From: an uncultured Gammaproteobacteria bacterium
GTDB taxonomy: Bacteria > Patescibacteriota > Patescibacteriia > UBA11705 > JABHMO01
NCBI GenBank assembly: GCA_964434235.1
Contig: CAYSUN010000001.1
Coordinates: forward strand, 18,574 to 82,573
Reading direction: 5' to 3'
DNA: 64,000 nt
The position numbers and the translations under genes are program-made. Each line of letters opens with the position of its first letter. Position 1 is the stretch's first letter. Positions 1-54,702 of the stretch are shown one piece after another. A model generated the notes under the pieces. That model had not been told where the DNA came from, did not search any database, and saw only the letters and a program-made list of their open reading frames with translations.

Positions 1-59
1 TTGTCGGGGAAATTGTTGGAGGGACTCAAACTTTAGCGAGTGGAACAGAACATAGTCAA

Positions 60-3438: not shown

Positions 3439-3450
3439 TAATTTATTAAA

Positions 3451-6230: not shown

Positions 6231-6231
6231 T

Positions 6232-6690: not shown

Positions 6691-6724
6691 ATTTATATAA
6701 GTTAACATAAGATTATCAAGAAAT

Positions 6725-7393: not shown

Positions 7394-7426
7394 TAATTTA
7401 TAATTTTAAATCTTGTATAATAAAAT

Positions 7427-9334
7427 ATGTTTAAACCCAATGATGTCAAGAAAAAACCAGTTTCTTCTGAGATACCAATTCCTAAATTAGAAATACTTAA
7501 CGAAACTGCTTCTATTAAAAATGAGGAAGTAAAAGCTTCAAAACAAAAAGAAGTTTTGGAACAAGAAAAAACGTATCGTAAGGGAATAACTTCGGTTTTG
7601 GATATAGTTGCTCCGGCTGCGTTTGAAGTAAATCCTGATCATGTTCGAATTGGCGGACTTTTTGCTAGAACTCTTTTTGTCATGACTTATCCAAGATATA
7701 TTAACGTTGGTTGGTTTTCTCCAGTTATAAACTATAACGCAACTTTGGATATTAGCATGTTTTTTTATCCAATTGAGGCTGGTGTAGTTTTGAAACAATT
7801 AAAAAATAAAGTTGGTATTTTAACAGCCCAGTTAACTTCAGATTCAGAAAAAGGAGCTCCTCGTGATCCACTTAGAGAAACAGCCCTTCAAGATATTGAG
7901 CAACTTCGAGATGATATTACTCAGGGTACTGAAAAGTTTTTTCAATATGCGTTATATGTAACTTTGTATGAAAAAACTATTAGTGAGTTGGATGTTTTAA
8001 CTGAAGACGTTGAAACTGTACTGGGAACAAGGTCAATAATTTCTAAACGGGTATTTTATCAAGCAGAGCAAGGCTTTAATTCAACAATTCCTATTTCTAA
8101 TGATGAATTAATGATAACTGCTAATCTTAATTCTTCCCCAATTGCTGCTTCATTCCCATTTATGTCCTCGGAGCTTACTTCTGATGATGGAGTTTTATTT
8201 GGTATTAATCGACATAATAACAGTTTAATTTTGTTCGATCGATTTTCTTTGCAAAATGCTAATGCCTGTGTGTTCGCTACTTCTGGAGCTGGTAAAAGTT
8301 ATACTATAAAACTGGAAATTTTGCGGAGTATGATGCTTGGAACAGATGTGATTATTATTGATCCAGAAAGAGAATATAAAAATTTGAATGACGCGGTTGG
8401 TGGAACTTATGTAAATATTTCCTTGAATTCTGATAGTAAAATTAATCCTTTTGATTTACCTCGAAAAATGGGTGATATGTCGGCGGCTGATGTTATCCGA
8501 AGTGCAGTCATTACTTTGAAAGGTTTAATGCGAATTATGCTTGGAAAAATGACTTTTCAAGAAGATTCTATTATGGATAGAGCTTTAATTGAAACTTATG
8601 CTAAAAAAGATATTACTGGTGAATCTGATCTAACCACAATCGAACCACCAATTATGCAGGATTTGTATGATGTTCTTGATGGAATGGATGGTGGAGCTGA
8701 TTTAGCTTTACGTTTGAAAAAATATACTTCGGGAACATTTTCTGGTTTATTTAATTCACCGACTAATGTAGACATGGCCAATCAATTAGTTTGTTTTAGT
8801 GTGCGTGACTTGGAAGATGAACTTCGACCAATGGCAATTTATAACATTGTTAATTATATTTGGAATGTAGTTCGATCGGAAGTAAAAAAGAGAATTTTGG
8901 TAATTGATGAAGCTTGGTGGTTATTGCAACATGAAGATTCAGCAAAATTTATTCACGCTTTAGTAAAAAGATGTCGTAAATATTATTTGGGAGTTACAAC
9001 TATTACACAGGATGTAAATGATTTTCTTTTGTCTCAATATGGTCAAGCGATTGTAACAAATTCAGCTTTGAAAATTTTGTTAAAACAAGCTCCTTCAGCT
9101 ATGGATTTGATTCAAAAAACTTTTCAATTAACTGAAGGTGAAAAATATTTACTTTTAGAATGTAATGTTGGTGAAGGAATTTTCTTTGCTGGTAGTCGTC
9201 ATGCTGCGATGAAAGTTGTGGCTTCTCCGCTTGAAGATAGAATGATTACAACTGATCCTCGACAGTTGTTAGCACAGGAAAAACAGAGAGAAGAAGAAGA
9301 GGCTAAGGAAGCTGAAAGAGAAAATACAGTTTGA
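7427..9334 (+). CDS. virB4: VirB4-like type IV secretion ATPase (central and C-terminal ATPase part)
   Basis: Walker A FATSGAGKSYT; Walker B ILVIDEAWWLL (the DEAW motif typical of VirB4/TraC); N-terminal region with the PRYINVGWFSPVIN..LDISMFFYPI motif seen in Gram-positive VirB4 (TcpF/PrgJ-like). Confidence 0.8.
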   Translation: MFKPNDVKKKPVSSEIPIPKLEILNETASIKNEEVKASKQKEVLEQEKTYRKGITSVLDIVAPAAFEVNPDHVRIGGLFARTLFVMTYPRYINVGWFSPVINYNATLDISMFFYPIEAGVVLKQLKNKVGILTAQLTSDSEKGAPRDPLRETALQDIEQLRDDITQGTEKFFQYALYVTLYEKTISELDVLTEDVETVLGTRSIISKRVFYQAEQGFNSTIPISNDELMITANLNSSPIAASFPFMSSELTSDDGVLFGINRHNNSLILFDRFSLQNANACVFATSGAGKSYTIKLEILRSMMLGTDVIIIDPEREYKNLNDAVGGTYVNISLNSDSKINPFDLPRKMGDMSAADVIRSAVITLKGLMRIMLGKMTFQEDSIMDRALIETYAKKDITGESDLTTIEPPIMQDLYDVLDGMDGGADLALRLKKYTSGTFSGLFNSPTNVDMANQLVCFSVRDLEDELRPMAIYNIVNYIWNVVRSEVKKRILVIDEAWWLLQHEDSAKFIHALVKRCRKYYLGVTTITQDVNDFLLSQYGQAIVTNSALKILLKQAPSAMDLIQKTFQLTEGEKYLLLECNVGEGIFFAGSRHAAMKVVASPLEDRMITTDPRQLLAQEKQREEEEAKEAERENTV

Positions 9335-25812: not shown

Positions 25813-26748
25813 TTATTCTTGTGTGATTTTTGCTAATTGATCAGGAAAGTTTTGATAAATTAAATTTATTGCTTTAATGGCTATTGTTCTTAGCGTTTTT
25901 CGGTCATTGTTTTTTTTGCAGTTCTCAAGTTGGCTATTAAATTCATCAACCAAAGCATCAATTTCTTTGACCATGTCTGGGTTACTCAATTGAATTATTT
26001 TTTCTGCAACTGATGATAAACCATTTCTAGCAAAATATTTTTGGTAATGGGGAATTGGACTTATTTTTTGAAATATATCATCAGCAACATCATCATCAGT
26101 TAAATGTAAACAACCCCAAGCATTAAAATAATCTGGATTAAGTGTGTAGTTTGCTCTTTCCATTTCTTCTTTTACTCGCAAACTATCACGTTTAAGTTTT
26201 TTTTGTATTAATTTCTGATCATCATTAGCAAAAGGAAAATCCTTTCTTTCAAAAGTTTCAGGATCAACATAGTTTGGCCCATATATAAGCAGTTTTGCTT
26301 GATTAGCAATATCAAGTAATGGTTGAATAATCTGTTTTTGTTGACAAATAGGTAGGAGTTCGTTGAATTTATCAGCTAAGCGGTCAAATTCTTTTATAGC
26401 GTCAGGATGGCTGAGAATTTTTAATGTATTAGCATAATCGTTATCTCTGTAAGCGTGCGGTCGGCGATAGCTTTCAATATAGTGAAAAACTGGTTTTACT
26501 TTGTTTAAATATTGCAAACCATCTTTTAGTAGACCTATATTTCCTGCCCAAACATTGAATGAATCACTTAATAAGCCGGTTTCTGAAGTTTTCATTCCTT
26601 CCACAAGTCTTAGTCTATATTCTCGACGTTCTTCAGCGTCAGATTTGAATTTAATCATTTCTCCAGAGTCTGGAGAAACAAGACCCTCCAAAGAAGAATC
26701 TTCTTTAGAGGTTTGGGGTTGATCTTTTTTCCTAAAAGGGTTGAACAT
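25813..26748 (-). CDS. hypothetical protein with internal duplication
   Basis: Two similar ~50-aa segments (LSHPDAIKEFDRLADKFNELLPICQQK.. / LSNPDMVKEIDALVDEFNSQLENCKKN..). Confidence 0.5.
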   Translation of the reverse strand: MFNPFRKKDQPQTSKEDSSLEGLVSPDSGEMIKFKSDAEERREYRLRLVEGMKTSETGLLSDSFNVWAGNIGLLKDGLQYLNKVKPVFHYIESYRRPHAYRDNDYANTLKILSHPDAIKEFDRLADKFNELLPICQQKQIIQPLLDIANQAKLLIYGPNYVDPETFERKDFPFANDDQKLIQKKLKRDSLRVKEEMERANYTLNPDYFNAWGCLHLTDDDVADDIFQKISPIPHYQKYFARNGLSSVAEKIIQLSNPDMVKEIDALVDEFNSQLENCKKNNDRKTLRTIAIKAINLIYQNFPDQLAKITQE

Positions 26749-26761
26749 ATTTATAGTAAAT

Positions 26762-27382
26762 TTATGAGTTGGCTGATTTATCTAATTTATGAATAATATC
26801 ATCAGCAATTTTTTGATCAATAGGCATGTTTAAGAGTTTTTTTAAATCTTTTTTAGGTACTAGGCTAACTGTCCAAACTTCTTCAACTTCGCCATCTTTT
26901 CTGTGAAAATCTGCTTGAGTTGGTGTTCCTCCAATTCTTTTGGCCAAATAATATCGTGTTAACGTTGTGGTTTTTGTATAGTCACCTAAATAACCGGTGA
27001 TTTCGGTAAGTAAACCAGTTTCTTCCAAAGCTTCCTTAACGGCCGTTTGCTGTAAGGTTAAAGTCGGTTCAATTCTGCCTTTGGGAAAGGTGTGTTCATA
27101 TCCGCCAAAATGATTACTTGGTTCATATATCCAAATTCTGCCATCTGGTTCCTCAATAATTACGCCAGTAGATTTTTTTAAATAACTGTTTGGAGGCAAT
27201 TTAAATTCCGGTTCTTGGTTTTTTAGATCAACATCTGGTATATTTGCGAACTCTGGAGCTTCTTTTATACTTTCAAATTTAACGTCGTTAATTTCTAATC
27301 CTTCGCAAAAAGTTGTTTTTGAAAAATTAACTATTTCATTCGGATCTTTTAGTGGATCTTGTTCTTGTTCAAATTTAAACAT
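26762..27382 (-). CDS. NUDIX-family hydrolase
   Basis: Nudix-box-like GGYEHTFPKGRIEPTLTLQQTAVKEALEETGL (REx2EE-type core KEALEETG). Confidence 0.5.
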   Translation of the reverse strand: MFKFEQEQDPLKDPNEIVNFSKTTFCEGLEINDVKFESIKEAPEFANIPDVDLKNQEPEFKLPPNSYLKKSTGVIIEEPDGRIWIYEPSNHFGGYEHTFPKGRIEPTLTLQQTAVKEALEETGLLTEITGYLGDYTKTTTLTRYYLAKRIGGTPTQADFHRKDGEVEEVWTVSLVPKKDLKKLLNMPIDQKIADDIIHKLDKSANS

Positions 27383-27488
27383 ATCTTTTGGTTTAATTGC
27401 AGTTATATTAATTTCAATAATTGATTAACTTCTGTAACTTGAATAGTGCCAATTATTTAGAGTGGATTGAAAAGTTTTAACAGAAGTA

Positions 27489-28655
27489 CTATTTCTTAAT
27501 TTTTTTTATAAAATAATAAAACGAACTTAAAATCGGAATATTTAGGGCAATTGTGAAAATTAATAATAGTAAGAGTATTATTAAGTCTGGGATGTTTTCG
27601 ACATTTAATTTAACCCATAGTGGTACAGTAATATTCGTTGCATAAAAAAGGTGAAGGTATGTTGGAATAAATATTACGGTAATAATAATTATTAAACTAT
27701 TTAGCTGACCTAAAAGTATTTTTGAAATATCTTTATCAACTATCGTTGATTTTAAATATTTTAGAAAATTGTTTTTATTTTTCTCAAACTTTTCCTCTAA
27801 TAAATTATAGGTTTTTTGCGAACTGTCAATTATAAAACCGATTGGTGCTAATGTTAATATAAGTAGAAAAATATTTTGTAATTTCAATTCTTGAATTAAA
27901 GAAAAATATAAACTGGTCGAGATATTGCTTATTACACCGAGTGGCTTATACAGTATTATTACAATAGAAAAAACAATGACTGAAAAGAAAATAGTTAAGA
28001 TATTACCAAGAAATGAAAATATTGATTTTTTGTTCAGCCCAAAATTTATGAAAGTATAAATACCAATAAAAATAATTGCACTGAACAAACTTAATAACAA
28101 AATATTTGAATTGTTAATTGCCATCGGTAGTGTATACGTGAAAAGTATTGTCAAAATAATGATACTACTAGCAAAAATTTTCCAACTTTTTTTATATAAC
28201 AAAACAAATAATAAAAATAATATTATTAAAATAGCTTTCAGAATAATGGGGGAGCGGTATTTACTAATTATTTGATAATTTTCAAATGAGTAATTATTTT
28301 TTGTTAAAATTAATTTGTCTCTAGTTTGAAATCGTTCAAAAACAGAATCAACTTGATTTTTATAATGGCTTACTCCAATGAGTTGATTTTTGTTTTCTCC
28401 AGATTTTATTTTGACTTCAAATTCTTGAAAAATAGCTAAGGGGTCTAAATATTCATCATATTCTTCAAAGTTTTCTGCGATAATTTCAGTTATTTCTCCA
28501 ATGAAATAAGTTTCTTTTAGTTGAGTATCATTAGCAATATTTTGCTCTTCAAGTATATTTTCAGAATCTACCGTTGTTTCTTGAGCTATGGCAACATGGC
28601 CAATAAAAAAGAATATTAACAAAATAATGATTATTTTTGAGTACTTACTTTTCAT
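27489..28655 (-). CDS. hypothetical polytopic membrane protein (signal peptide, extracytoplasmic domain, ~7 TM)
   Basis: Hydrophobicity pattern only. Confidence 0.45.
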   Translation of the reverse strand: MKSKYSKIIIILLIFFFIGHVAIAQETTVDSENILEEQNIANDTQLKETYFIGEITEIIAENFEEYDEYLDPLAIFQEFEVKIKSGENKNQLIGVSHYKNQVDSVFERFQTRDKLILTKNNYSFENYQIISKYRSPIILKAILIILFLLFVLLYKKSWKIFASSIIILTILFTYTLPMAINNSNILLLSLFSAIIFIGIYTFINFGLNKKSIFSFLGNILTIFFSVIVFSIVIILYKPLGVISNISTSLYFSLIQELKLQNIFLLILTLAPIGFIIDSSQKTYNLLEEKFEKNKNNFLKYLKSTIVDKDISKILLGQLNSLIIIITVIFIPTYLHLFYATNITVPLWVKLNVENIPDLIILLLLLIFTIALNIPILSSFYYFIKKIKK

Positions 28656-28657
28656 AA

Positions 28658-29989
28658 TTATAATAAATTTAATAATTGATTAACTTCTGTAACTTGAATA
28701 GAATTATTTTGTTTTTTAGGAATTATAATATTTTTAAATCCTAATTTTTTAGCTTCCTGAACTCTTTTTTCTAAATTGATAACCGACCGAACTTCACCAC
28801 CAAGTCCAATTTCACCTATGGCAATAGTATCTTTGCTAATGGGTTTATTTCTGAAAGCTGAAATAATAGCGAGAGCAACAGCTAGATCAATAGCTGGTTC
28901 AGTTACTTTTAATCCGCCGACAATATTTAAATGAATATCTTGATTGTTTAGATTGATATTCGCTCTTTTGAATAAAACGGCTGAAAGCATTTGCAATCTA
29001 TTTTGATCGTAGCCCGACGTTTTTCTTTGCGGATAACCAAAAATAGTTGGAGTGACCAGAGCTTGGACTTCAATCAGAAAAGCTCGAGTACCTTCCATAA
29101 AACAGGAAGTTACAGTTCCAGGTGTGATATTTGTTTCATTGGAAAGGAATGCTTTTGTTGGATCTTTTACTTCAGCTAAACCTTTGTCCGTCATTTCAAA
29201 AACCCCGATTTCATTAGTTGAGCCAAAACGATTTTTACTACTTCGAAGTAATCGGAAACCGTGTAATTTATCTCCTTCCAAGTATAAAACTGTGTCAACT
29301 AAATGTTCTAATGTTTTTGGGCCAGCCACCGAGCCATCTTTAGTAACGTGCCCAGTAATTAAAATTGGGATGTTGTTTTGTTTGGCTGTTTGCAAAAGTT
29401 TAACGGTGCAAGCTCGTATTTGGCTAACATTGCCTGATTCAGAATCAACATCTGATGAATAAACAGTTTGAATTGAGTCAATTATTGCGATGCTGGGGTT
29501 GATTGTTTTTATAGCCACGCAAACTTCTTCAATGTTTGTTTCACTTAAAAATTTTAAATTGATAGGTTTATAACCCAGTCGATCAATTCGAAGTTTTATT
29601 TGGCTGGCAGACTCTTCACCTGAAATATAAAGCAGGGGAGCGTTTTGATTTTCTAGACTTTGCAATATTTGTAGAACTAGAGTTGATTTTCCGATACCTG
29701 GTTCGCCACCGAGAAGAGTAATGCTTCCTTTGACAATTCCACCACCAAAGATTTGATCAATTTCTACTAAATTGGTTTTCATTCTTTCAAAGTGTTCAAG
29801 TTTAATGTCGTTAAAATCAGTTAATTTCCCAGAGTCAAATTGTAGTTCTTGTTTTTTTGATTTTTTGATTTTTTGATTTACTGACTCTTGAATTGTTCCC
29901 CAAGCACCACACTCAAGACAGCGTCCTGACCACTTAGGAAACTGTGCATCGCATTTTGAACAGGTGAAGATTGTTTTAATTTGAGCCAT
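28658..29989 (-). CDS. radA: DNA repair protein RadA/Sms
   Basis: N-terminal zinc finger CSKCDAQFPKWSGRCLECGAW, Walker A GGEPGIGKSTL, RadA signature KNRFG, Lon-protease-like C-terminal domain. Confidence 0.9.
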   Translation of the reverse strand: MAQIKTIFTCSKCDAQFPKWSGRCLECGAWGTIQESVNQKIKKSKKQELQFDSGKLTDFNDIKLEHFERMKTNLVEIDQIFGGGIVKGSITLLGGEPGIGKSTLVLQILQSLENQNAPLLYISGEESASQIKLRIDRLGYKPINLKFLSETNIEEVCVAIKTINPSIAIIDSIQTVYSSDVDSESGNVSQIRACTVKLLQTAKQNNIPILITGHVTKDGSVAGPKTLEHLVDTVLYLEGDKLHGFRLLRSSKNRFGSTNEIGVFEMTDKGLAEVKDPTKAFLSNETNITPGTVTSCFMEGTRAFLIEVQALVTPTIFGYPQRKTSGYDQNRLQMLSAVLFKRANINLNNQDIHLNIVGGLKVTEPAIDLAVALAIISAFRNKPISKDTIAIGEIGLGGEVRSVINLEKRVQEAKKLGFKNIIIPKKQNNSIQVTEVNQLLNLL

Positions 29990-30003
29990 TTTATTAAATA
30001 AAA

Positions 30004-31377
30004 TTATTTAATGGTAATTGGACAAGTCCCTGCACCAGGCACAGCTTGAAATAATTTCTCAGCATGGTATTTGTCAATTATTCTTTGTTTTCCAGCTTTT
30101 CGAACTGAAACAGCTTTACCAGCCCCAAACATTTCACCACCAATCGCAGCTTCTTCTAGATTTTTATAATTACCACCAGTCCATTTGCTATTTTGATAAC
30201 CGCCATCACCAGCAGTACATTCTGACTTACCTTTATCAAAAGCATTTTCTTTGCAACGTTTGACAATTAATTGTTTCCAAGATTCAGTTAGTCCTTTTTC
30301 AATATTTGTACCACCATTACAACCTCCAAGTTTAAGTGTGTTACCAAGACTGGCCGTTCCACTGTTGTGATAAAGATAAAGTAAAGTGGCAATATCAGAA
30401 TCACTTAATTTACTAAGATCGCCTTTACAAATAGTATTAATCTTTTTTATGGCGAGCATAGTCATGCCAGTTACACCCATTACCTGAACTTTATCTAAAA
30501 TAAGGCGTGAATCATTTTTTAGTATAGGACTAGTTGATACCCCGATTTGGTTTAAGTAATAGGCAGTATCTGCCCCGCCTGTCCAGCCTTTCATTGACGC
30601 TGTCCAAGTGTCATATTTGAATTGGTACAAACCTTTGAAACAAGCACAATTTACTAATCCAGGTCTAAAGCCAGATTCATGTTCACACATTCCCACTAGA
30701 ATATTATAATTGAAGTTACCGCAAGCAGCAAAGTCTTTCATGAGTTGAACTAGTGAGTTTTTGTCTGGATGAGGATCACTATTTGTTGGCACACCGCAGT
30801 ATTCAAGAACTGAGTTTTTAGGGGCAGGACATTTACCACCTGATCCACCACTTATCCAGCCTTCTCCATCTGCTTTTTCCGCATAAACTGGATCTATGTT
30901 AAAATCCAGTGGAATGTTTTCAATTAAAGTGGTTTTTAGATTGGTTAAATTTGGATTAATTGTGTTCAAAATAATGTTTGTAATTAATAAAATTACTAAA
31001 CCTAATAAAGCGCTGGTCATCATTGATTTTGATTTTTGTATACCTGCTGGATAAGCACCAGCTAAAACATAAAAAAGTCCACCAATCATAAAGACAAGAG
31101 TCGCCACAATAGAGCCCAAAATTATACCATAATTGTAAATACCAACTAGATATTCAACAATCCAAGGTGATGAAGAAAATTTTCCTCCTTCAACCATAAC
31201 TTTTGATAAAGATGGCATGTTGGGAATTGGAATGCTGATTTTAGGTTGAATGGCTTCTTTTGCTTTACTTTCTGATGTGGTTGTTGCGCTTTGTGCAGAA
31301 ACAGAAGGAACCAAACAAATGCTAACGAGAAGACAGGTTAGGCTAAATAAGAATAAAATTTTAGTTTTATTTCTCAT
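30004..31377 (-). CDS. secreted/membrane-anchored protein with lytic-transglycosylase (SLT)-like domain; N-terminal signal plus two-helix module shared with the next gene
   Basis: SLT-like motif GMCEHESGFRPGLVNCACFKGLYQFKYDTW (ES..GLMQ-type); N-terminus is signal peptide + WIVEYLVGIYNYGIILGSIVATLVFMIGGLFYVLAG + ..ALLGLVILLITNIILNTINPNL. Confidence 0.5.
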   Translation of the reverse strand: MRNKTKILFLFSLTCLLVSICLVPSVSAQSATTTSESKAKEAIQPKISIPIPNMPSLSKVMVEGGKFSSSPWIVEYLVGIYNYGIILGSIVATLVFMIGGLFYVLAGAYPAGIQKSKSMMTSALLGLVILLITNIILNTINPNLTNLKTTLIENIPLDFNIDPVYAEKADGEGWISGGSGGKCPAPKNSVLEYCGVPTNSDPHPDKNSLVQLMKDFAACGNFNYNILVGMCEHESGFRPGLVNCACFKGLYQFKYDTWTASMKGWTGGADTAYYLNQIGVSTSPILKNDSRLILDKVQVMGVTGMTMLAIKKINTICKGDLSKLSDSDIATLLYLYHNSGTASLGNTLKLGGCNGGTNIEKGLTESWKQLIVKRCKENAFDKGKSECTAGDGGYQNSKWTGGNYKNLEEAAIGGEMFGAGKAVSVRKAGKQRIIDKYHAEKLFQAVPGAGTCPITIK

Positions 31378-31418
31378 GTGTTCTGATAATAATAAAATTT
31401 ATAAACTTTGTTTTTGAA

Positions 31419-33770
31419 CTATTTTGCAATATAACCTTTGTTGGTTTTGTACCAGTTAGATGTTCCAGCTCCACACTGTTTTAAATCTACAACGCCAGTA
31501 ATTGCTTCAGATGGGGTAAGTGCTTTTTCACACGTTCCACCAGGTGTGAATGTTCCCTTCAGATTTACGCAGGTTTCAGGACTTGTTTTTATGCCGTTTT
31601 CGGGATTTGTCAATCCTAGGGAATAAGCAATTAAATCGCTTTTGCAACAACCAGATTCGCCTGCATCTAAATTATCTTCGGGGAAAAACACAATGTTTGC
31701 AACTGTTCCTGATCCTCCGCCATGGACACATTGATTTGTTGATCCTGCATTTGATGAAATTGGATTTAAGTTTTCGATGGTGCCATTTCCATTACTAACA
31801 CATTTACTCATTAAATCATTTTGCTTATATGTGTCTTTGTTGGCTTTAGGACAACCTGTTGCAGCACATTCTGATGACCAGCCTGTGTTTGATTCAACTA
31901 TTTTTCCTTCGCCTAGTGAAATAAATACATGTTGAAGTGTGCCACCGTTACATCGGAACATTGCTCCGGCCGGAAGTAGACTTGGATATTTTGATGCAGC
32001 CCCACCACCAACAATAAGAGCTTTCCATCTTAAGTCAGTTAGTTGAGGTCCTAAGGCTCCAATACAAGTAGCGCCTGGTAGTTTGCAACCAGAGTTTTTT
32101 AAAATTCTTGAAGATATTTTAGCACAACTATTTGGCGCTGTGAGGAAGTCTTTTGCATTAGCCCAAGCAGTACCAACATTTTTTATGTCAGTTGAAGTGC
32201 ATTTCAAAAGTGAATTGTAGCAACCTGTACCACTATTGAATTTAGAGTAATCTGGAAATTTGGATGCATCCGCTTCTGGACATTCCCCAGTTGAAGGATC
32301 AAAGTTGGGTGGGTTGTAAGCGCTATCATCTGCCGTTGTTAAATTAGCTGCTATTCCATATTCACCTGGTTTATAAAAATAGGTAGAATCTGCTATTCCG
32401 CAATCATCCCAGATGTCTTGAGCAGAGGCTGTTTTTAGACCTCGGTGAACTGGATCATTTATACCATATACTCCTCCAGAATAACTGGTTAAAACTATGT
32501 AATGACCATTTTTAGTGAATTTGCACTTTGGATGATCTCTTCCAATTGACCTAATTATAACTGGAATTCCTTTTGAAAGTAATTCAATAAGTTTTGGGTC
32601 ATCTTTTGGTCTGTTCCAAACAGATTCTGATTTTAGTCCGTTTGCAGTAGCCAATTCTGCCATCCCTTTGTCATCAAAACCACAACAAGTCTGAGCTTTG
32701 CTTCCAGAAACAGAGCCAGCTGGTGCGCGGATGCCATTTAGCTGTATCCATTTAGCAACGTCAGGTGGAGTAACACTAATTCCATAATAGTTCAAAACCA
32801 TTGCAGATGAAGTTAGTCCACAGCCAGAAGATTGAATCACGTTAGTGTTGGGAGTGCCACCAGTGCTATTTGTCATTTTTGAATTTTTACAAAATTCTAC
32901 AAAATTATTTGCGCCCCATGGGTTTTTACTACACCACGCTGAATCTTTGACATTTGGATTGTTACAAAGTTCAGAAACTTTGTAAGTCTTTTCTAGCCAT
33001 TCACAGTAATTTACATCAGTTTTAGGATATTTGTCATTTTTAAATTTACAAGAAAAAATACCAAATTGAGGTGGGTTAGAAATGCCTGGCATTTCCATTT
33101 TGTAACCCGCAGTACCACAGGCGACCGCATATTTACCTAGGCCAGGAACTTCAACCTTACCATTTTGATAACTGCAATTATTGCCAGTTAGAGGATAACA
33201 TGCCCATTGTATGTCAGTCTGAGCATAGTAAACAACTTTTCCTGTGCCAGTTGGGGTGTTTGTTACTGGAGTATTTGCAAATTCACTTTCATTGATTACT
33301 CCATCTGAGACAGATTCAATTAGCGTTGTTTTTAGATTTACTAGATTGGGGTTTATTGTATTCAAAATAATGTTTGTGCACATGAGAATAACCAGACCGA
33401 TTAAAGCACCAGATATCATTGATTTAGCTTTTTGTATTCCTGATGGATTTGCGCCTGCCAGAACATATAATAATCCACCAATCATCAAAATCAGTGTAGC
33501 CACGATTCCTCCAAAAATTATTCCATAGTTATAAATTGCAACTAAATAATCAACGATCCAATTGGTTACATATGTTTGACCAGGAGTGAATTTAATGCTA
33601 TCCCAGGCATCTAGACCAGGAATTTCTACACGAACTTTCGGAGCTGGTAGTTCAACTTCTTCCTGCACTTTTTGACTGTATGTGAGATGAAGAGGTATTA
33701 AAATGAAAACAAAAATAATAATTGTTGAAAGAATGATTTTTTTATAATATTTTTTTTTTGTTTTTGTCAT
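31419..33770 (-). CDS. large Cys-rich secreted protein with peptidase-C39-like (papain-fold) domain; shares N-terminal two-helix module with 30004-31377
   Basis: SSGCGLTSSAMVLNYYG resembles the C39/C39_2 catalytic-Cys motif; the N-terminal ~110 aa are paralogous to the downstream gene. Confidence 0.5.
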   Translation of the reverse strand: MTKTKKKYYKKIILSTIIIFVFILIPLHLTYSQKVQEEVELPAPKVRVEIPGLDAWDSIKFTPGQTYVTNWIVDYLVAIYNYGIIFGGIVATLILMIGGLLYVLAGANPSGIQKAKSMISGALIGLVILMCTNIILNTINPNLVNLKTTLIESVSDGVINESEFANTPVTNTPTGTGKVVYYAQTDIQWACYPLTGNNCSYQNGKVEVPGLGKYAVACGTAGYKMEMPGISNPPQFGIFSCKFKNDKYPKTDVNYCEWLEKTYKVSELCNNPNVKDSAWCSKNPWGANNFVEFCKNSKMTNSTGGTPNTNVIQSSGCGLTSSAMVLNYYGISVTPPDVAKWIQLNGIRAPAGSVSGSKAQTCCGFDDKGMAELATANGLKSESVWNRPKDDPKLIELLSKGIPVIIRSIGRDHPKCKFTKNGHYIVLTSYSGGVYGINDPVHRGLKTASAQDIWDDCGIADSTYFYKPGEYGIAANLTTADDSAYNPPNFDPSTGECPEADASKFPDYSKFNSGTGCYNSLLKCTSTDIKNVGTAWANAKDFLTAPNSCAKISSRILKNSGCKLPGATCIGALGPQLTDLRWKALIVGGGAASKYPSLLPAGAMFRCNGGTLQHVFISLGEGKIVESNTGWSSECAATGCPKANKDTYKQNDLMSKCVSNGNGTIENLNPISSNAGSTNQCVHGGGSGTVANIVFFPEDNLDAGESGCCKSDLIAYSLGLTNPENGIKTSPETCVNLKGTFTPGGTCEKALTPSEAITGVVDLKQCGAGTSNWYKTNKGYIAK

Positions 33771-33782
33771 TTTTGTTTTAAA

Positions 33783-35072
33783 TTATTTTAGGTTTATCAA
33801 ATGTAACCCTTGTGTTGTTTTGTCAGTGTAATACAATTTTGAACCATCTTTTGAAACTTGCATTTGTTCAATTGAATATCCAACCTCTGGTTCAGCAACA
33901 AAACTTTTAACACCTGTTTGTAAATTTATTTTGTATATATAATCAGGAATGTCATCAGCTAAAGCAGGAACTAACCCAGCGCCATAAGGTAGTTCTTTTG
34001 GTACTGCACAGTACATTTCAGTGTTTGAAGAAAAAGTACATTTGTCAGCCCAAGTGTTCAGTTTTAGACTGTAATTGTTTTGACCAATATTATTTCCTGA
34101 AGCATCCACTACATATAAAAGTGGCTTGTGATCAGAAAATTGATTTTGAACACTATAAACTAATTTGTTTCCATCTGGAGACCATTCTATTTGTGGGTCA
34201 TAACCATTAAGGTTTATTGATTTGAAATTTTCTTCATATTGACCCAAGAAAAATAGTTCACTTGTCGAAGCAGATTTGGCAGTTTTGTAACTAGCAATTA
34301 TTTTGTTATTTGGTGACCATTCAGTAATAAAATTATTTGCTTCATCACCCATGTATTCAATGTATTTTTGATTTGAACCATCAGCATTAGCCGTTCCTAA
34401 GAATTTATATTCTGGATTTGGGTTATCATCTTTAAAAACAATTTGACTGCCAGTATTATTAAAACCAAAGTCAGTCCAATCTTTTGGTAAACTTATTTGT
34501 TTGTCGTTTTCAAAGTTGTACAGAATATTTGAGCCATCGGGAAATTCCAAAATTGCTTTTTCTGAGTTTGGTGCCCATGTTATATTCTCAACATTTTTAT
34601 AAGTTCTATTTGAGTATAATTCATGATCTCCATAAAATGTTATTTTTTGAAAAAGTCCAGTGTTCTTATTGTAAACTATAGTGTCATTTCCATCAGGAGT
34701 TAATGCTAGACTATCAACAGTTTGAAGACTTAAATTTGTTATGGCAGTAATACCCCCTTTCGCATATGAGTCAGCAGTTGTTTCGTAATCAATTTCTGGA
34801 GTTATTTTAATAACAGCGTTAAAATCACTTTCCTCCGCGACTTCAGCTTGTGGAACTTCAGATTCTCCTGGAGTGAAAATTCCAGGTTGCTCACCTTGAT
34901 TAGCTCCTTCTAATTGTTTGATATCAATCTCTGTTTTTTCACCAACTTCTTCATCAATGACGATTGATTTGAAAAATAATTGGTAAATACCTAGTCCAAT
35001 TAAAATACACAAAAGAATAAACGCAAATATTAAAGCAATCTTTTTCCAGTCAAAGTTTTGTAAATTGAACAT
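33783..35072 (-). CDS. membrane-anchored beta-propeller protein (TolB/PD40-like repeats)
   Basis: N-terminal TM; repeated W/SP(D/N)G(N/S)K(I/L)(V/A)(Y/F) motifs (TPDGNDTIVYN, APNSEKAILEF, WSPNNKIIASY, WSPDGNKLVYS, SKDGSKLYYT). Confidence 0.55.
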   Translation of the reverse strand: MFNLQNFDWKKIALIFAFILLCILIGLGIYQLFFKSIVIDEEVGEKTEIDIKQLEGANQGEQPGIFTPGESEVPQAEVAEESDFNAVIKITPEIDYETTADSYAKGGITAITNLSLQTVDSLALTPDGNDTIVYNKNTGLFQKITFYGDHELYSNRTYKNVENITWAPNSEKAILEFPDGSNILYNFENDKQISLPKDWTDFGFNNTGSQIVFKDDNPNPEYKFLGTANADGSNQKYIEYMGDEANNFITEWSPNNKIIASYKTAKSASTSELFFLGQYEENFKSINLNGYDPQIEWSPDGNKLVYSVQNQFSDHKPLLYVVDASGNNIGQNNYSLKLNTWADKCTFSSNTEMYCAVPKELPYGAGLVPALADDIPDYIYKINLQTGVKSFVAEPEVGYSIEQMQVSKDGSKLYYTDKTTQGLHLINLK

Positions 35073-35096
35073 AATTTTATCTTTATTTTATGAATT

Positions 35097-36680
35097 TTAG
35101 AATAAACCTGAAATGTCGCCACTTAAAGCTTCTGCTAAAACTACTCCAGCTAAAACTGCAGCCACAATAATAATTATTACAGGTAGAATTGGACCGACAC
35201 AAAATGCACAAGTAGAGCAACACATTCGGCAACCTTTGATTATTTTTATAATAACTTTAAATACTTTTCCTATTTTGCCACCAAATTTAGTAAACCACTG
35301 GGCAATACTACAACTAAATTTAAATTGTTTAGTTGGTAAACAACTGTTGAATTTTTTCATTGGATTCATTCTATCTATACAATCAGTAGCGTTTTTTCTG
35401 GCCATTGCTTTCATTTTATTGGCTTTTTGATTTGCCATTTCTTTGGCTTTTTGTTTAACGAGGTCAGCATTTTCCTTCATTGATCTTTGTCTTATGGCGT
35501 TTAACTGTAGTTGCATCTGTTTTGCCTTTTGTTGCATGGCTTTGGCTTGGGCAATCGGGGATTGTCTTTGGTTTGACTCGTTTTTGTTTTCTGATCCGCT
35601 TGGTTTGTCTTCTGGGGAAGGTGGTTCATCTTGATTTTCGCTGTAGGGCGTAGTGCCCTCTTTTTCGGATTGTTTTTGTTTGCGAAAATCTTGTAAACTT
35701 TGATTTTGATCTTGTTGTCTTTTCTGATCAATGGCCCGTTGTCTATCAAGTTGTCTTTTTATAGATCTTTCATGATCAGCATCACCAGTTGTTCTACCGC
35801 CAAGTGGTTCAGCATACCTAGGTTTTGCTGGTGGAGTAGGTTGTTGTTGCTGTTGTTGTTCAGAAGCTCTTTGCTGATTTACCGGGGGTGCAGAAAGATC
35901 TGGGATGTTGCCGTCAGCCATTTGAGTGGCAGCTTGATTTTGTTTGTTTTTTTCTTGATCTGAAAATTCGCCTTCAGGATTTGTTGAGGTGGATTCTGGT
36001 TCTGTTGGGTTATTGGTTTCCTGTTTTTTTGCTTCTTCATCCCCATTCTTTCCATCTTCAGATTTTAAATTGTCAGATTCTGGGTTGTCATTTTTTGGTT
36101 CTTCTGTTTGATTGTTGTTGTCAGGTTTTCTATTGTCAACAAAAGCTGGACTTGGATTACTGGCGTCGTTGTTATTATTCTTGCTATCGTCGCCGTTACC
36201 TTCTTCATCTTCTTTACTGTCGTCGTCATCATTCTGATTTTTTGAAGTTTTTTTCTTGGCTTCGGCAAGCGCTTGGCCATCAGCTGTTTTTTTGCCTCCA
36301 GCGGTTGGCTTACCAGATTCTTGTCCTGGTATTTCGGGTTTCTTTTTTTTGGTTTTTTTCTTTTTCCTAGTATTTTCGTTACTGCTTGTAGTAGTTCGAT
36401 TGTCTTGGTTCATTAAACCATTTTCAGCAGGATCTTTAGTCTCAATTTTTTGCCTTGATGATTGGGTTTGTGGAGTTAGATTTATTTCGATCTCTTTTTC
36501 TTCAGGTTCAATTTTACTGGTTATTGAGATTTCTTCTTGTTCTTCAGTTGGCGGGTTAGATTGATTATTTGATTTATTCGGAGTAATTGTTTGATTATCT
36601 AAAACAATATTAGCATTACTCGGTAATGATTTTAGCTCTATACTTTCATTTTTATCCTTTGTTTTATTATCGTCTGCCAT
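35097..36680 (-). CDS. highly disordered, charged (K/E/D/N/Q/P-rich) protein with Cys-rich C-terminal tail anchor
   Basis: ~480 aa of low-complexity charged sequence (poly-Q, KKKKTKKKK, NNNN runs), then CRMCCSTCAFCVGPILPVIIIIVAAVLAGVVLAEAL at the C-terminus. Confidence 0.6.
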   Translation of the reverse strand: MADDNKTKDKNESIELKSLPSNANIVLDNQTITPNKSNNQSNPPTEEQEEISITSKIEPEEKEIEINLTPQTQSSRQKIETKDPAENGLMNQDNRTTTSSNENTRKKKKTKKKKPEIPGQESGKPTAGGKKTADGQALAEAKKKTSKNQNDDDDSKEDEEGNGDDSKNNNNDASNPSPAFVDNRKPDNNNQTEEPKNDNPESDNLKSEDGKNGDEEAKKQETNNPTEPESTSTNPEGEFSDQEKNKQNQAATQMADGNIPDLSAPPVNQQRASEQQQQQQPTPPAKPRYAEPLGGRTTGDADHERSIKRQLDRQRAIDQKRQQDQNQSLQDFRKQKQSEKEGTTPYSENQDEPPSPEDKPSGSENKNESNQRQSPIAQAKAMQQKAKQMQLQLNAIRQRSMKENADLVKQKAKEMANQKANKMKAMARKNATDCIDRMNPMKKFNSCLPTKQFKFSCSIAQWFTKFGGKIGKVFKVIIKIIKGCRMCCSTCAFCVGPILPVIIIIVAAVLAGVVLAEALSGDISGLF

Positions 36681-36699: not shown

Positions 36700-37012
36700 T
36701 AGATCGAAATTACATGAAAAATATTAATATCTAAAATTAACAGATATTATTTTGAAATACGGTCTTTGTTTTTGTATTTTCTGTTAATATTGTATAATAA
36801 TTATACTTTAGCGTCAAAAGCAAAAGTGGGTAAATACACAAGAAATCAAAAAACCAAGAAAACAAGAAAGCAAGAAAGTATGAAAGCAAATACTTAGCCT
36901 TTGTAAAGTATCTTAAGCTACCCTTTGTTTCTTAGTTTCTTATTTCTTTATTTCTTTATTTCTTTTTAACTCACTATTCATTACTTATTTACTTAACACT
37001 TAACTTAACTCT
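36700..37012. repeat. divergent promoter region rich in CAAGAAA/TTTCTTG and TACTTAACACTTAAC word repeats
   Basis: Same repeat vocabulary as the 9.3-10.0 kb block. Confidence 0.6.
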
Positions 37013-50517: not shown

Positions 50518-53500
50518 ATGCGTAAAAAAAATCAATCAGCTGAAAAAATTGAAGATTCTACCATTGTTGAAGAACCTCAATTTTCCATGGAACAAATAGC
50601 TGAGCAAAGCAAAGAAAAAATTATTGAGATCAGCCAAAGGAAGGCAGAAAAAATACAAAAGCAAGATGAATTGTTAGATCGAATAATTGATATTAACCAG
50701 CAATCATTGACTGAAAATGTTCCAGAGCAAGAACTGCAATTTTCTGATGTGAAAAATAAAATTGATGAGTTAACAGATCAAATTTTTGATGTAGAAACTA
50801 TGCTCAAGCGATTCAAGGATGGTTTTGATTACGCTCAGCTAAGTTTAGTCTTAGAACGCATTCAGCAAGTTTTCAATGATTTAGAAACAGTTATTTCGCA
50901 AGCTAATAATGAGGTAATTAAAACGGAAGCTCGAATTAAGTTATTGATTAGTTCCAAAGAAAAATTAATTGCCAAACAGCAAAAGTTAAAAGGTTTTTGG
51001 CAAAATTTATTTAAATCCAAAGAACAAGATAAGACTGCTCAGTCAATATTAAAAGCTGAAGAAGATTTACTTCAGTCTCGAAACAATCTTTATCTAGATA
51101 AAGAATCTTTAGCCACAATTCAACGTGAAAAAGAACGTCTTGGTGCTAAACAAGAAAAGCTCTTGATTGCGGCCCAGATTAGGAACTTTGATTCAACTGT
51201 TGTTTCTAAATTAAGTTTAATAGATGAATTGCTGGATGATGATTTGGTAATGGCCTATGAATGGGAGTCTATGCAAATTGTAGTGCCAACAAAAATAGAA
51301 AATTTGTCTAGTAAACTTGAAACTCCTTTAACTGAAGAAGAAAAAACTAAACTTTATAATTTGCTTGAGCGGAGATTTAGAATCAGCAAAGACGAGAAGC
51401 CTGTAGATAAAGAGAGCAAGTTGAAAGAACTTGATGCAGAAATCGAAGCTATGCGAGGGAGGAAAGAAGCTGATTTTCATTTTGGTTTTGATTCAGAAAG
51501 AGAAGAAATGAAAAGTTTCTTGCGAGAGATGACTGAACAATACGGTGCGGTTGTTGGGTCAGACCATAAGCGAGTTTGTAAAAATTGGTTGAACTTATTT
51601 ATTCGTCACAATATAAAGCCAGAGTTAGATGCTCTAACCCAAGAGATTATTGATAAACAGCCAACAGAAGAAGTCCAAGCAGAAGTAGCTAAAAATATTA
51701 AGGCATATATAGATAGTACTTATCACACATCAGTAAATTTGAAACATTGGGAAGATTTAGCCATAAAATGTGAGCCAGAGGCTTGGCTTGGTATGAGAAA
51801 AGTTTTGTTGGCTTCAGGAGAGTATTCAGCTGAAAGTATTAAAGATTTTGAAGATTGGTATGCTGATATTTTAATAGAAAAGAATTTGTTTAGCGGAGGT
51901 TCAGAATCTTTTGCCGGTTCAACGGCCGTCAGTAATATAGCAAAAATTGAACATTTTCAGTCATTGCCAAGAATGTACGAATTTTGCGTGAGCCATGATC
52001 CTAGCCATACAACCACAGCTACAATTCGTGCCATGAAAAATTTATTGGTCAAAAGTGATCAAACGGAATTGGCAGAGTTTTTACAAAATCTACCACAGCA
52101 AACCAGAAATATGTTTGAAGTATTAATCGACCCAAATTCAGCTTTAAATTTTTATGGTGAAAGTGAAGGACTTCGTTTTGAAGACTTTGCTTTGGTTGAG
52201 CCTGAATTAACTTTAATGAAAGAAAAACTGGTAAAAGATTTAAGGAAAAAAAATTGGAGCGATCAGGCAATTCGCGAAGCCTATAATCTAACTGGTAATA
52301 AATTTGAGGTTCTTGAAAATTTGAAAAAATTAGTATTAGGTTTGGGATTAAATTTTTCTGAGTTTGCTCAAGCCTATTTTCGTCAATTGTTTCGAGATTT
52401 TGACCCGAAAAACGCAGATGATCTAAAATTTTTGGATTTATATTGCAAGGAAACGGGTCTTGAAAAAGAGAGAATTTGTTTGGATCTCGGTTCTGTTATT
52501 ATTGAATCGCCAACCAATAAATTAATCGCTTCTTTAGCGTCGCCTGAACACGGTGACAACGTGCATTTTTGTGAGTTAATATTAACGGAAGAAGCTAAAT
52601 TCCCTGAAGAGGTAATAGCCAAGTTAAGAAAAATTTATTTAAAAGATGAAGTAAAAAAGCAAGCTAAATTAAGGCAAGATTTAGTGGTTCTCAGTGTGAT
52701 GATTTCTGCAAATGAGAAATCTGGGATTCTGAAAAATATTATAGAAGTATATGATTTTGATAATCCATTAGAAGTTTCTAATCTAGAAAAAGTTGTGGCT
52801 TATTATTTATACTTGCAGAGATTTATAGAATATAAGGAACTTTATGTTGATAAAGATTCACCAAACTTACGGTCAATAATAGACGAAAAGATAATGAGTT
52901 TAATGAGCTTGAAAGAAGTTGAAGAATATTTAAGCGAGATTATAAAATCTTTAGCTAGAAGTTCTCAAATTTCTTTTATTCAAAATGCTGATAAAACAAT
53001 TTGGAAATTAGTTTACGGAGAAGAGGCAGTAGAGAAATTTTTAGATGTTTTGCCAACTGACTCACAAGAAAAAAGAAATGCTTTTACACATAATGATTAT
53101 GATCGCACAACTGAATTTTTTAAATTTATGTGTGTTGGCAATGATAAGACAACTTTAAATCAAGAAAACCTAAATATTTTTACTCAGTACGTTCAGCGAT
53201 TTGGTCTTTCGAAAACTCGGCTTTTGTTTGACTATGCTCGAAATATAATTTTGTTCAAGGAACAAGGAATTGATCTGCCCTACCATCAAGAGCAAGACGG
53301 AATAGATTCATTTGATAAGCTGGAAGAAAAATTTAAAAAAATAAAAGAAATTTTGTTTGGGGAAGAAGAAGTTTCTGATATGGCTAATTTATCTAACTTG
53401 GAAGTTGAATTTCTCAATGTTATGACTGGTAAAAGTACTCATCGTTTTGATAGAGGTCGGCCAGATATGCAAAGGATTATTAACGATTGGAATAATGATA

Positions 53501-54702
53501 GTAAGTCTGAAGAAATAGTTCCAAAACCAGAAGAATATCAATCGTTCTCGTTGGAAGTTCAACGAGCAAACGTTACGGTCGATGTAGACGTTATTCGTAA
53601 TGAGTATGAAGAGTTAAAAATGAATATTTTAGAGGCTTGCAAAGATCCAGAAGATGTCCAAGGATTAAAAGCTAGAGCCTTGTCGATTATTAAGCAAAAA
53701 ATATTAGAGATTGAGCAAATGGTTGATGCTAATCCAGAAAATTCTTTTATCCAAAAACAATTAGTCAATTATCAAACTATCCACCAGAATTTGGGACAGG
53801 TCAATGATTTGGATCAGTTGTTAATTGCGTTACTGTCAGTAGAAAAAGGTTTTGCTCTTAAAAATAATATTGATTCGATAGTTCGAGAAATTTTAATAAA
53901 AAAAGTTTTTCGAATGAATTTTTCCGAAGATACTTTAGCTCAGTATATTGGCGTTTTAGAAAAACCAATTTCAGTAAAAGGAGTTTTGGGAATGGTTAAT
54001 ATAGTTAATAATTTTATTAAGGATCATGTTATAAATTTAAGCCGAAATAATCAAGAGGGCTATTGGAGTGAAGAGGCTTGGCAGAAAATATTAGCGACTA
54101 AAAAGAATTCTAAGTTAATTGATGTTACTAAAGTTTTTAAAACACAAATTGATGCCCTAACCAAAGAAATTAAAAGTGCCAAAGTCGAAGACGTGTTGGA
54201 GCCTTCGCTGGCAGTTCAGTTTATTCCTGATCGTGGTTTTGTAGGCGAAATGTCAGGATATTTAGCTGATGTTTGTTACACAGCTGAGTATCCATTGTTA
54301 AAAAAATGGCCGAATGTTGTTCCGTTTAAGTTAGTTTATACGGCTGATGATGGATCAAAAGAGTTCCTCGGTTCAGTCTTGGTTTTTGAAGTAACACAAA
54401 AAAATGGGGAAAAGGCATTGCTTGTTAGAGCTTTTGATGTACCGCAAGAAGAAGATTTTAATATAAGTAAATGTATTGAGAGCTTTTTAGATGCCATGCA
54501 AGATTTGGGTAAAAAGCGTGGAGCTACAAAAGTGCTGGTGCCTGGAGTTAATGGCGCAATCTCCAATTATTTAATGACAGTTGCACACATAAAACAATAC
54601 GTAACTGATAAAACCGCTGTGTCTTTAGCTGAAGAGTTTAAATTTAATGGGGAAAGTTATAATTTAACAGATAATTGTTTTGTGGCTAGAGAGATAAAAT
54701 AA
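50518..54702 (+). CDS. giant hypothetical protein (1394 aa) without signal peptide or TM, coiled-coil N-terminus, embedded in the pilin operon
   Basis: Continuous ORF; 5 nt after the upstream pilin-like gene and 2 nt before the next pseudopilin gene. Confidence 0.6.
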   Translation: MRKKNQSAEKIEDSTIVEEPQFSMEQIAEQSKEKIIEISQRKAEKIQKQDELLDRIIDINQQSLTENVPEQELQFSDVKNKIDELTDQIFDVETMLKRFKDGFDYAQLSLVLERIQQVFNDLETVISQANNEVIKTEARIKLLISSKEKLIAKQQKLKGFWQNLFKSKEQDKTAQSILKAEEDLLQSRNNLYLDKESLATIQREKERLGAKQEKLLIAAQIRNFDSTVVSKLSLIDELLDDDLVMAYEWESMQIVVPTKIENLSSKLETPLTEEEKTKLYNLLERRFRISKDEKPVDKESKLKELDAEIEAMRGRKEADFHFGFDSEREEMKSFLREMTEQYGAVVGSDHKRVCKNWLNLFIRHNIKPELDALTQEIIDKQPTEEVQAEVAKNIKAYIDSTYHTSVNLKHWEDLAIKCEPEAWLGMRKVLLASGEYSAESIKDFEDWYADILIEKNLFSGGSESFAGSTAVSNIAKIEHFQSLPRMYEFCVSHDPSHTTTATIRAMKNLLVKSDQTELAEFLQNLPQQTRNMFEVLIDPNSALNFYGESEGLRFEDFALVEPELTLMKEKLVKDLRKKNWSDQAIREAYNLTGNKFEVLENLKKLVLGLGLNFSEFAQAYFRQLFRDFDPKNADDLKFLDLYCKETGLEKERICLDLGSVIIESPTNKLIASLASPEHGDNVHFCELILTEEAKFPEEVIAKLRKIYLKDEVKKQAKLRQDLVVLSVMISANEKSGILKNIIEVYDFDNPLEVSNLEKVVAYYLYLQRFIEYKELYVDKDSPNLRSIIDEKIMSLMSLKEVEEYLSEIIKSLARSSQISFIQNADKTIWKLVYGEEAVEKFLDVLPTDSQEKRNAFTHNDYDRTTEFFKFMCVGNDKTTLNQENLNIFTQYVQRFGLSKTRLLFDYARNIILFKEQGIDLPYHQEQDGIDSFDKLEEKFKKIKEILFGEEEVSDMANLSNLEVEFLNVMTGKSTHRFDRGRPDMQRIINDWNNDSKSEEIVPKPEEYQSFSLEVQRANVTVDVDVIRNEYEELKMNILEACKDPEDVQGLKARALSIIKQKILEIEQMVDANPENSFIQKQLVNYQTIHQNLGQVNDLDQLLIALLSVEKGFALKNNIDSIVREILIKKVFRMNFSEDTLAQYIGVLEKPISVKGVLGMVNIVNNFIKDHVINLSRNNQEGYWSEEAWQKILATKKNSKLIDVTKVFKTQIDALTKEIKSAKVEDVLEPSLAVQFIPDRGFVGEMSGYLADVCYTAEYPLLKKWPNVVPFKLVYTADDGSKEFLGSVLVFEVTQKNGEKALLVRAFDVPQEEDFNISKCIESFLDAMQDLGKKRGATKVLVPGVNGAISNYLMTVAHIKQYVTDKTAVSLAEEFKFNGESYNLTDNCFVAREIK

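Follow-up and report, generated by a model that had tools for sequence, protein, structure and literature searches.

Two paralogous pilin-like hairpin modules joined to predicted peptidoglycan hydrolase domains in a Patescibacterial gene pair, and their possible link to type IV secretion

The window analyzed here is a stretch of 64,000 nucleotides from contig CAYSUN010000001.1 (assembly GCA_964434235.1, positions 18,574 to 82,573 of the forward strand), placed by GTDB in the Patescibacteriota, and all coordinates below are counted from its first nucleotide. The genes in question, termed A and B, are two adjacent minus-strand open reading frames (ORFs) of 457 and 783 amino acids (Table 1) whose products share an N-terminal block followed in each by a different predicted enzyme. 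The sequence-only reading that preceded this analysis had placed a paralogous N-terminal module of two hydrolase-like proteins at 31000-33770, a range that covers B and omits most of gene A, the full feature being 30004..33770. The paralogy itself is borne out and the consensus string given for it is accurate: BLASTP aligns A34-155 with B30-154 at 58% identity over 125 amino acids (E 2e-41), and all other segments of the two proteins give E > 1. Over its 84-amino acid core the module shows 77% protein and 74% DNA identity. Codon positions 1 and 2 of this core are 85% identical compared with 51% for position 3, which points to an old duplication whose protein product has been kept under purifying selection, and the third positions rule out a recent copy or gene conversion as its source.

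The order of the blocks is the same in both proteins, a signal peptide being followed by about 40 exported residues, the first transmembrane (TM) helix TM1, a KxK loop, TM2, the motif ILNTINPNL and a flexible linker. Hydropathy gives three hydrophobic segments in each protein: residues 4-31 resemble a signal peptide, and TM1 and TM2 span about 77-113 and about 117-142, respectively. The loop between TM1 and TM2 (…AGIQKSKS… in A and …SGIQKAKS… in B) carries a charge of +2 with two lysines and no acidic residues, and its flanks are neutral or acidic. Both modules are modeled by AlphaFold as a helical hairpin of two long helices with a pLDDT of about 65-77, and conserved glycine positions are present in both helices. 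The alignments termed A3 and A4 and both AlphaFold models were made without Met-1, so that residue n in these corresponds to residue n+1 of the protein, and the signal-peptide cleavage sites were placed by eye, using the −3/−1 rule in B. The ectodomains are rich in cysteine (11 in A and 29 in B), as is typical of exported proteins. The topology proposed earlier, a signal peptide with two helices and a basic loop, is thus upheld by hydropathy and AlphaFold, and it is that of the Pfam family PF18895 (signal peptide, two TM helices, short positive loop, both ends outside). A pilin of that family would be a small standalone protein that stops soon after TM2, whereas 307 residues in A and 634 in B follow the module. 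No third or standalone copy of the module, of the kind that the earlier reading had proposed to look for in the genome, was found in the window by six-frame tblastn and hidden Markov model (HMM) searches. The partial ORF 3..194 was considered as a standalone pilin and rejected as a fragment of a small TM protein.

PF18895, named T4SS_pilin after the system for type IV secretion (T4SS), is the family to which the module belongs. It is matched by 97 of 115 module proteins, namely A, B and those of 80 related loci drawn from GTDB species genomes by a scan for the pattern ILNTINPN, and by 71 of 78 relatives in a second set, with a best E of 2.6e-13, and the database protein identical to B (P0158) and its orthologues carry the precomputed annotation PF18895 plus PF13529. 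A is counted in the family because of its identity to the B module and alone would not pass. The family TrbC/VirB2 (PF04956) is matched by a minority of the module relatives (7 of 115 and 1 of 78) and in the Pfam search by neither A nor B; NCBIfam and PHROGs gave no match to A or B, and tblastn with the module gave none in 72,556 plasmids or in phages. A word-indexed homologue search with the module alone returned a single match, the standalone 138-amino acid PF18895 pilin P0001, which is alignable through 'ILNTINPNLVNL' and has about 10 more residues after it, placing the enzymes of A and B exactly at the natural C terminus of the pilin. A profile of three module sequences, run with HMMER against 1.84 billion cluster representatives, had 30,049 matches at E<=1e-3, of which 9,238 reached E<=1e-10.

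PF18895 proteins have been regarded as the VirB2-like pilins that belong to the Patescibacterial T4SS, with arrays of their genes near virB4 (PMC12102498, PMC10633639, PMC12857230), and in Ca. Southlakia epibionticum these pilins are essential (PMC12102498, PMC10633639). A and B share with the pilins SEML1_0014-0019 of that organism (PMC10633639, PMC12102498) the profile family and the signal peptide followed by a two-helix hairpin; tandem arrays are a further shared feature, as is, in the relatives of A and B, linkage to an operon with VirB4, PrgI and VirB6-like genes. They differ in that those pilins are standalone proteins of about 100-185 amino acids, whereas A and B run on for 300-630 amino acids into enzyme domains, belong to a subfamily with ILNTINPNL past the end of the Pfam model, and are encoded 21 kb from virB4. 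In the classical pilins Agrobacterium VirB2 and RP4 TrbC a signal peptide likewise precedes two hydrophobic helices with a short basic loop, but the head-to-tail cyclization of such proteins would be impossible in A and B unless the C-terminal enzyme were cut off.

The ILNTINPNL motif (A 137-146, B 136-145) lies at the outer end of TM2, just past the end of the PF18895 model, and may serve in capping the helix, in docking or in processing. Fused and standalone members of the subfamily alike keep its N, P and L at 90% conservation or more, both sets having been chosen with queries that contain the motif. Processing here would make A and B pro-proteins, in which a cut after NPNL frees a soluble secreted hydrolase and leaves a pilin of ordinary size to polymerize or to cyclize like TrbC/VirB2. 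NPNL falls exactly at the boundary of module and linker, the linkers are flexible and modeled with low confidence, and C-terminal trimming precedes cyclization in RP4 TrbC and VirB2. However, the motif is equally conserved where there is nothing to release, in standalone pilins, and the choice of queries bears on its conservation in both sets, leaving release by cleavage a highly improbable account.

The C-terminal domain of A is not recognized directly by Pfam. The profile of the A orthologues aligns with P0122, a protein composed of pilin, SLT and GDSL domains, at a probability of 100%, and the aligned region of P0122 is matched by Pfam SLT (E 1.3e-8). His-233, Glu-234 and Ser-235 and the motif GLYQF are invariant among the A orthologues, and because of this alignment and these motifs the domain is identified as a predicted lytic transglycosylase of the GH23 type, with the lysozyme/lytic-transglycosylase fold and putative catalytic Glu of a VirB1-like protein. 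The fusion is kept in A orthologues of 427-457 amino acids. The C39-like fold predicted for B has a conserved Cys together with a GHY/NDP (His/Asp) motif, and the same architecture occurs in B orthologues of 774-905 amino acids. B 471-783 has no match in Pfam, PHROGs or NCBIfam; homologous regions are found in P0053, P0121, P0058 and in the ORF after the module gene of the related locus L001, and a 'C...LQHVFISLGEGKIVES' pattern seen by eye hints at a second papain-like domain there. The Pfam models of VirB1, SLT and CHAP have no direct match in A or B. Fusion of the module to enzymatic ectodomains, as suggested in the sequence-only reading, therefore stands, with a predicted lytic transglycosylase fold in A and a predicted C39-like cysteine peptidase in B.

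Table 1. Coordinates of genes A and B, their predicted parts and other features of the window
Feature	Position	Strand	Evidence
Gene A, 457 aa: signal peptide, pilin-like hairpin, ~50-aa linker, lytic-transglycosylase-fold domain	30004..31377	-	ORF, alignment A3
A residues 1-28, predicted signal peptide (...VSA|QS)	31294..31377	-	Hydropathy; AXA-like sites in the same position in orthologues
A residues 72-150, pilin-like module	30928..31164	-	BLASTP, Pfam, hydropathy; AlphaFold helices 70-104 and 109-139 (model numbering), pLDDT 70-77
A residues 201-457, predicted GH23/SLT-like lytic transglycosylase domain, H233-E234-S235...G-L-Y-Q-F	30007..30777	-	Profile alignment, invariant motif
Gene B, 783 aa: signal peptide, hairpin, linker, C39-like cysteine peptidase, Cys-rich C-terminal region	31419..33770	-	Pfam PF13529 1.5e-16, PF18895 1.1e-5
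B residues 1-32, predicted Sec-type signal peptide (K-rich n-region, hydrophobic core, ...TYS|QK)	33675..33770	-	Hydropathy, cleavage by eye
B residues 71-149, pilin-like module (TM1, basic loop, TM2, ILNTINPNL)	33324..33560	-	BLASTP, Pfam; AlphaFold helices 70-103 and 108-138 (model numbering)
B residues 150-176, T/P/G-rich linker	33243..33323	-	pLDDT below 50, composition
B residues 177-470, Peptidase_C39_2-like papain-fold domain with Cys-rich insert; candidate catalytic C317, H423, D439	32361..33242	-	
B residues 471-783, Cys-rich C-terminal region	31422..32360	-	AlphaFold pLDDT below 50 for most
Upstream gene, 429 aa: N-terminal TM and PD40/TolB-like beta-propeller	33783..35072	-	Pfam PD40 2.2e-5; TolB propeller 1.6e-6
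First gene of the probable operon, 527 aa: K/E/Q/N-rich low-complexity region, Cys-rich C-terminal TM tail	35097..36680	-	ORF list
Promoter-like site TTGACG-17-TACAAT before the run 527-aa gene, propeller, B, A, radA	36789..36817	-	Consensus scan only
VirB6-like polytopic membrane protein, 1049 aa, long charged tail	289..3438	+	Conserved operon position; no Pfam match
PrgI/VirB3-like two-TM protein	6232..6690	+	Pfam PrgI 29.5 bits, cut-off 27
222-aa weak TraC-N-like protein (p222)	6725..7393	+	
VirB4-like ATPase	7427..9334	+	Pfam P-loop_TraG 1.5e-29, AAA_10, DUF87; orthologues just upstream of module genes in 31 related loci

The arrangement had also been called unusual, which does not hold, as fusion is the majority form among the closest relatives within the Patescibacteria. 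In the pattern-biased set of 80 loci, at least 80 amino acids follow the module in 90 of the 107 complete module ORFs (median 171) and fewer than 40 do so in 16. The best 150 representatives of the profile scan, which is free of the pattern, comprise 110 single-module proteins, with a C-terminal extension of at least 80 amino acids in 76, of 40-79 in 20 and of fewer than 40 in 14, and 40 proteins with 2-6 tandem hairpins in one chain. A fused gene pair of this kind is thus ordinary within the phylum. The multi-hairpin proteins (P0002-P0024 and others) usually end in an extension of 130-380 amino acids, and their chains may be real concatenated pilins or gene-calling read-through, as from alternative genetic codes. 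Informatively titled records among the 80 loci are metagenome-assembled genomes of Patescibacteria, the closest being Falkowbacteria and Kuenenbacteria, with one short contig titled Phycisphaerae; the many records of third-party assemblies titled 'uncultured Gammaproteobacteria' are taken to be mislabels. The recognizable partners of the module are mostly wall enzymes (C39_2, M15_4/VanY, SLT, SLT_3, NlpC/P60, Amidase_2, Amidase_5, 3D and YkuD) with GDSL lipase and GH15 also among them, and most extensions are unrecognized Cys-rich domains. The pilin family and the hydrolases of the T4SS are each known already and their combination is visible in precomputed Pfam annotations; full-text literature searches found no paper that discusses pilin-enzyme (pilin-hydrolase) fusions, and neither PF13529 nor PF18896 nor T4SS_pilin is named in the supplement of PMC12102498.

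Module genes occur in tandem arrays of 2-4 in 22 of the 80 loci, some of which mix short standalone and long fused forms (L037 and L061 for example). One clade (L003, L004, L007, L013, L015, L019, L022 and L025) has 2-3 pilin-fusion genes of about 280-460 amino acids, interleaved with a gene of about 290 amino acids and placed after one of about 385.

The mixed arrays bear on the possibility that the fusions are minor pilins, built into a VirB2-like filament among standalone major pilins and displaying on its surface or tip enzymes that breach the wall of a host. Such an arrangement would be a polymorphic design of structural subunit plus effector like that of the specialized ('evolved') VgrG, Hcp and PAAR proteins of type VI secretion, in which a conserved structural N-terminal module also bears a swappable C-terminal enzyme, often a peptidoglycan hydrolase; these are unrelated proteins of an unrelated machine, and for delivery or toxicity by A and B the likeness is an analogy only. 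The single conserved N-terminal module bearing many different C-terminal enzymes agrees with it, as does attachment of the enzyme at the C-terminal end of the pilin, which in structures of conjugative pili lies outside the filament. Ectodomains of 300-630 amino acids on every subunit would nevertheless be difficult to fit into tight helical packing, so the fusions could at best be rare subunits, and the standalone pilin gene to accompany them is the one not found in the window. In many virB4 operons of the relatives the fusions are moreover the only recognizable PF18895 genes, and the 2-6 hairpins per chain in 40 of the best 150 representatives suit a membrane protein better than a filament subunit. 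The Patescibacterial T4SS with its pilin array is essential for epibiotic growth and has no relaxase (PMC10633639, PMC12102498), which would suit a filament acting on the host, but a PF18895 pilus is not known to have been seen and the literature describes only the 'potential to elaborate' one (PMC12857230). Incorporation of the fusions into a filament is on this evidence unlikely.

The T4SS core cluster of the window (289..9334, plus strand) is of the Patescibacterial type and, in addition to the genes listed in Table 1, holds two uncharacterized proteins of 520 and 406 amino acids. No pilin, relaxase or coupling protein is seen adjoining the cluster, and nothing pilin-like follows virB4. In 21 related loci, large ORFs with about 7-9 crude TM segments lie upstream of virB4 and are matched by the N-terminal 360 amino acids of the VirB6-like protein. 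The recurrent order in the relatives is a VirB6-like gene, further genes, a PrgI-like gene, p222, VirB4, a small two-TM ORF, a one-TM ORF, 1-3 module fusions and a beta-propeller, and in 31 of the 80 loci virB4 lies less than 5 kb upstream of a module gene on the same strand. The small two-TM ORFs directly after virB4 are not recognized as pilins by Pfam. Homologues of the propeller adjoin module genes in 9 related loci (L001, L016, L032, L035, L072 and others), both in and outside virB4 operons.

In the window, which has about 33% G+C and nearly all genes on the plus strand, the only long minus-strand block is 25813..36680, where the GC skew drops from about +0.2 to about 0 or −0.07. The block contains, in order of transcription, the 527-amino acid protein, the propeller, B, A, radA, a YibE/F-like membrane protein, a Nudix hydrolase and a 311-amino acid ORF (25813..26748). 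The related locus L016 has virB4, a module gene, a propeller, one further ORF and radA contiguous on one strand, and a Kuenenbacteria-like contig has the order 427-amino acid ORF (in the propeller position), B orthologue, A orthologue, radA. The contiguity in L016, the order in the Kuenenbacteria-like contig and the dip in GC skew over the minus block together suggest that the distal part of the T4SS operon has been inverted or moved in the lineage of the window.

On balance A and B are probably Sec-exported, membrane-tethered peptidoglycan hydrolases that use a VirB2-like pilin hairpin as their anchor and work with the Patescibacterial T4SS, an assignment made with modest confidence. The signal peptide would be cleaved, both helices would insert with the KxK loop facing the cytoplasm and their ends outside, and the enzyme would hang outside the membrane on a flexible linker of 25-50 residues, A delivering a lytic transglycosylase and B a C39-like cysteine peptidase with its Cys-rich domain. 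Since the anchor is the same module that the T4SS handles as a pilin, it may bring the enzymes to the T4SS or to a site of pilus assembly, where they would open the wall locally, that of the cell itself and possibly that of the host at the point of contact. The job of VirB1 would then be done by VirB1-like activities fused to VirB2-like anchors, a design that may show how these ultra-small cells take a secretion pilus across a wall.

In the VirB1-type hydrolases of monoderm systems (PrgK of pCF10, TraG of pIP501, CwlT of ICEBs1 and proteins like Orf14/Orf17 of Tn916/CTn1) a lytic transglycosylase or muramidase is accompanied by a papain-like cysteine peptidase, as is predicted for A and B. In A and B, unlike these, the two activities sit on two proteins, the peptidase of B is C39-like and not CHAP or NlpC/P60, and the anchors are pilin-like hairpins, whereas the named monoderm enzymes are anchored by a single TM helix or a lipid. 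VirB1-type wall hydrolases are described in general as membrane-anchored and encoded in the T4SS operon (PMC12102498). In Ca. Southlakia epibionticum the pilins SEML1_0014-0019 (100-185 amino acids) and the lysozyme/peptidase proteins SEML1_0006 and 0007 are encoded by separate genes of one essential T4SS cluster (PMC10633639, PMC12102498), and functions that are separate there and fused here are connected by a link of the Rosetta-stone type. Near virB4, these genomes seldom have a separate VirB1 homologue (PMC12102498).

Several observations weigh against the assignment of A and B as pilin-anchored hydrolases of the T4SS. B scores 25.9 bits against PF18895 (E 1.1e-5), 0.7 bit below the cut-off of 26.6, and A scores 16.6 bits (E 0.0084), also below it. 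The analogy with VirB2/TrbC pilins drawn in the sequence-only reading holds for the Patescibacterial family and fails for a direct match to an Agrobacterium-type profile: hhalign compares a module profile of 55 sequences with Agrobacterium VirB2 (a query confirmed at 99.2% identity to annotated virB2 genes) at a probability of 3.6% and with a VirB2/TrbC profile of three sequences at 3.4%, the non-significant alignment having the register TM1 to TM1. Searches of PDB sequences with A, B, profile A3 and module profile A5 matched no solved pilin and gave nothing meaningful. The set of 80 loci is biased by the search pattern, and in 49 of them virB4 is absent from the available sequence, many of these being short contigs. 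The A/B pair itself lies about 21 kb from virB4 on the opposite strand beside radA and other housekeeping genes, and the YkuD, VanY, GDSL and GH15 partners resemble housekeeping enzymes of the wall or surface and not accessories of a T4SS.

These last observations lead to an alternative in which the PF18895 hairpin is a common two-helix surface anchor and A and B remodel the wall in growth or division with no tie to the T4SS. The neighbors of A and B (radA, the YibE/F-like membrane protein, the Nudix hydrolase and recG) would suit such a role, but the layout of the window looks like a secondary inversion or translocation, given the contiguity in L016 and the dip in GC skew. The large size of the family, 30,049 cluster representatives, speaks for a generic anchor, and YkuD L,D-transpeptidase and VanY/M15 carboxypeptidase normally act on the wall of the cell itself; GDSL and GH15 partners are a further point for it. 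The conserved array of the clade with L003 has no virB4 within 10 kb, whereas over the whole set the 31 of 80 loci with virB4 closer than 5 kb compare with about 2% expected within 10 kb for a gene placed at random in a genome of some 1 Mb, by a rough estimate, and the beta-propeller travels with the module gene in and outside T4SS operons. A housekeeping anchor independent of the T4SS is therefore considered improbable.

Epibiotic growth requires the Patescibacterial T4SS, which has no relaxases and is distinguished from other monoderm systems by its supposed pilus (PMC10633639, PMC12857230, PMC12102498). The gene pair is informative for the question of what this 'pilus' is. If fusion of module and hydrolase holds in a large share of lineages and the module is mainly a T4SS-linked anchor, the idea of a pilus is weakened; if a filament does carry the enzymes, this would suggest how a very small cell breaches the wall of its host, and type IV secretion would gain a new way of displaying effectors. 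Either reading alters how pilin counts from profile searches are interpreted, as counts made by the search method of PMC12102498 would include fusions unnoticed. The fusions would also help to explain the scarcity of separate VirB1 homologues near virB4 (PMC12102498). A further generalization, that in many Patescibacteria most of the counted 'VirB2-like pilins' are filament subunits of the T4SS with swappable heads (wall-degrading enzymes, and also lipases or glycosidases), forming a pilus that cuts the host wall where epibiont and host meet, is speculative and judged unlikely. For work on A and B themselves the analysis gives concrete constructs and candidate catalytic residues.

Elsewhere in the window a 1394-amino acid ORF at 50518..54702 on the plus strand has no Pfam match at E<=0.001. 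The 527-amino acid protein that opens the minus block has no signal peptide and no match in Pfam, NCBIfam or PHROGs. The measured intergenic gaps of the block are 2-41 nucleotides, plus one of 106 nucleotides, and no terminator-like site on the minus strand precedes 26711..26685, from consensus matches only. With these short gaps, the promoter-like site ahead and no earlier terminator-like site, the 527-amino acid gene, the propeller gene, B, A and radA probably form a single operon.

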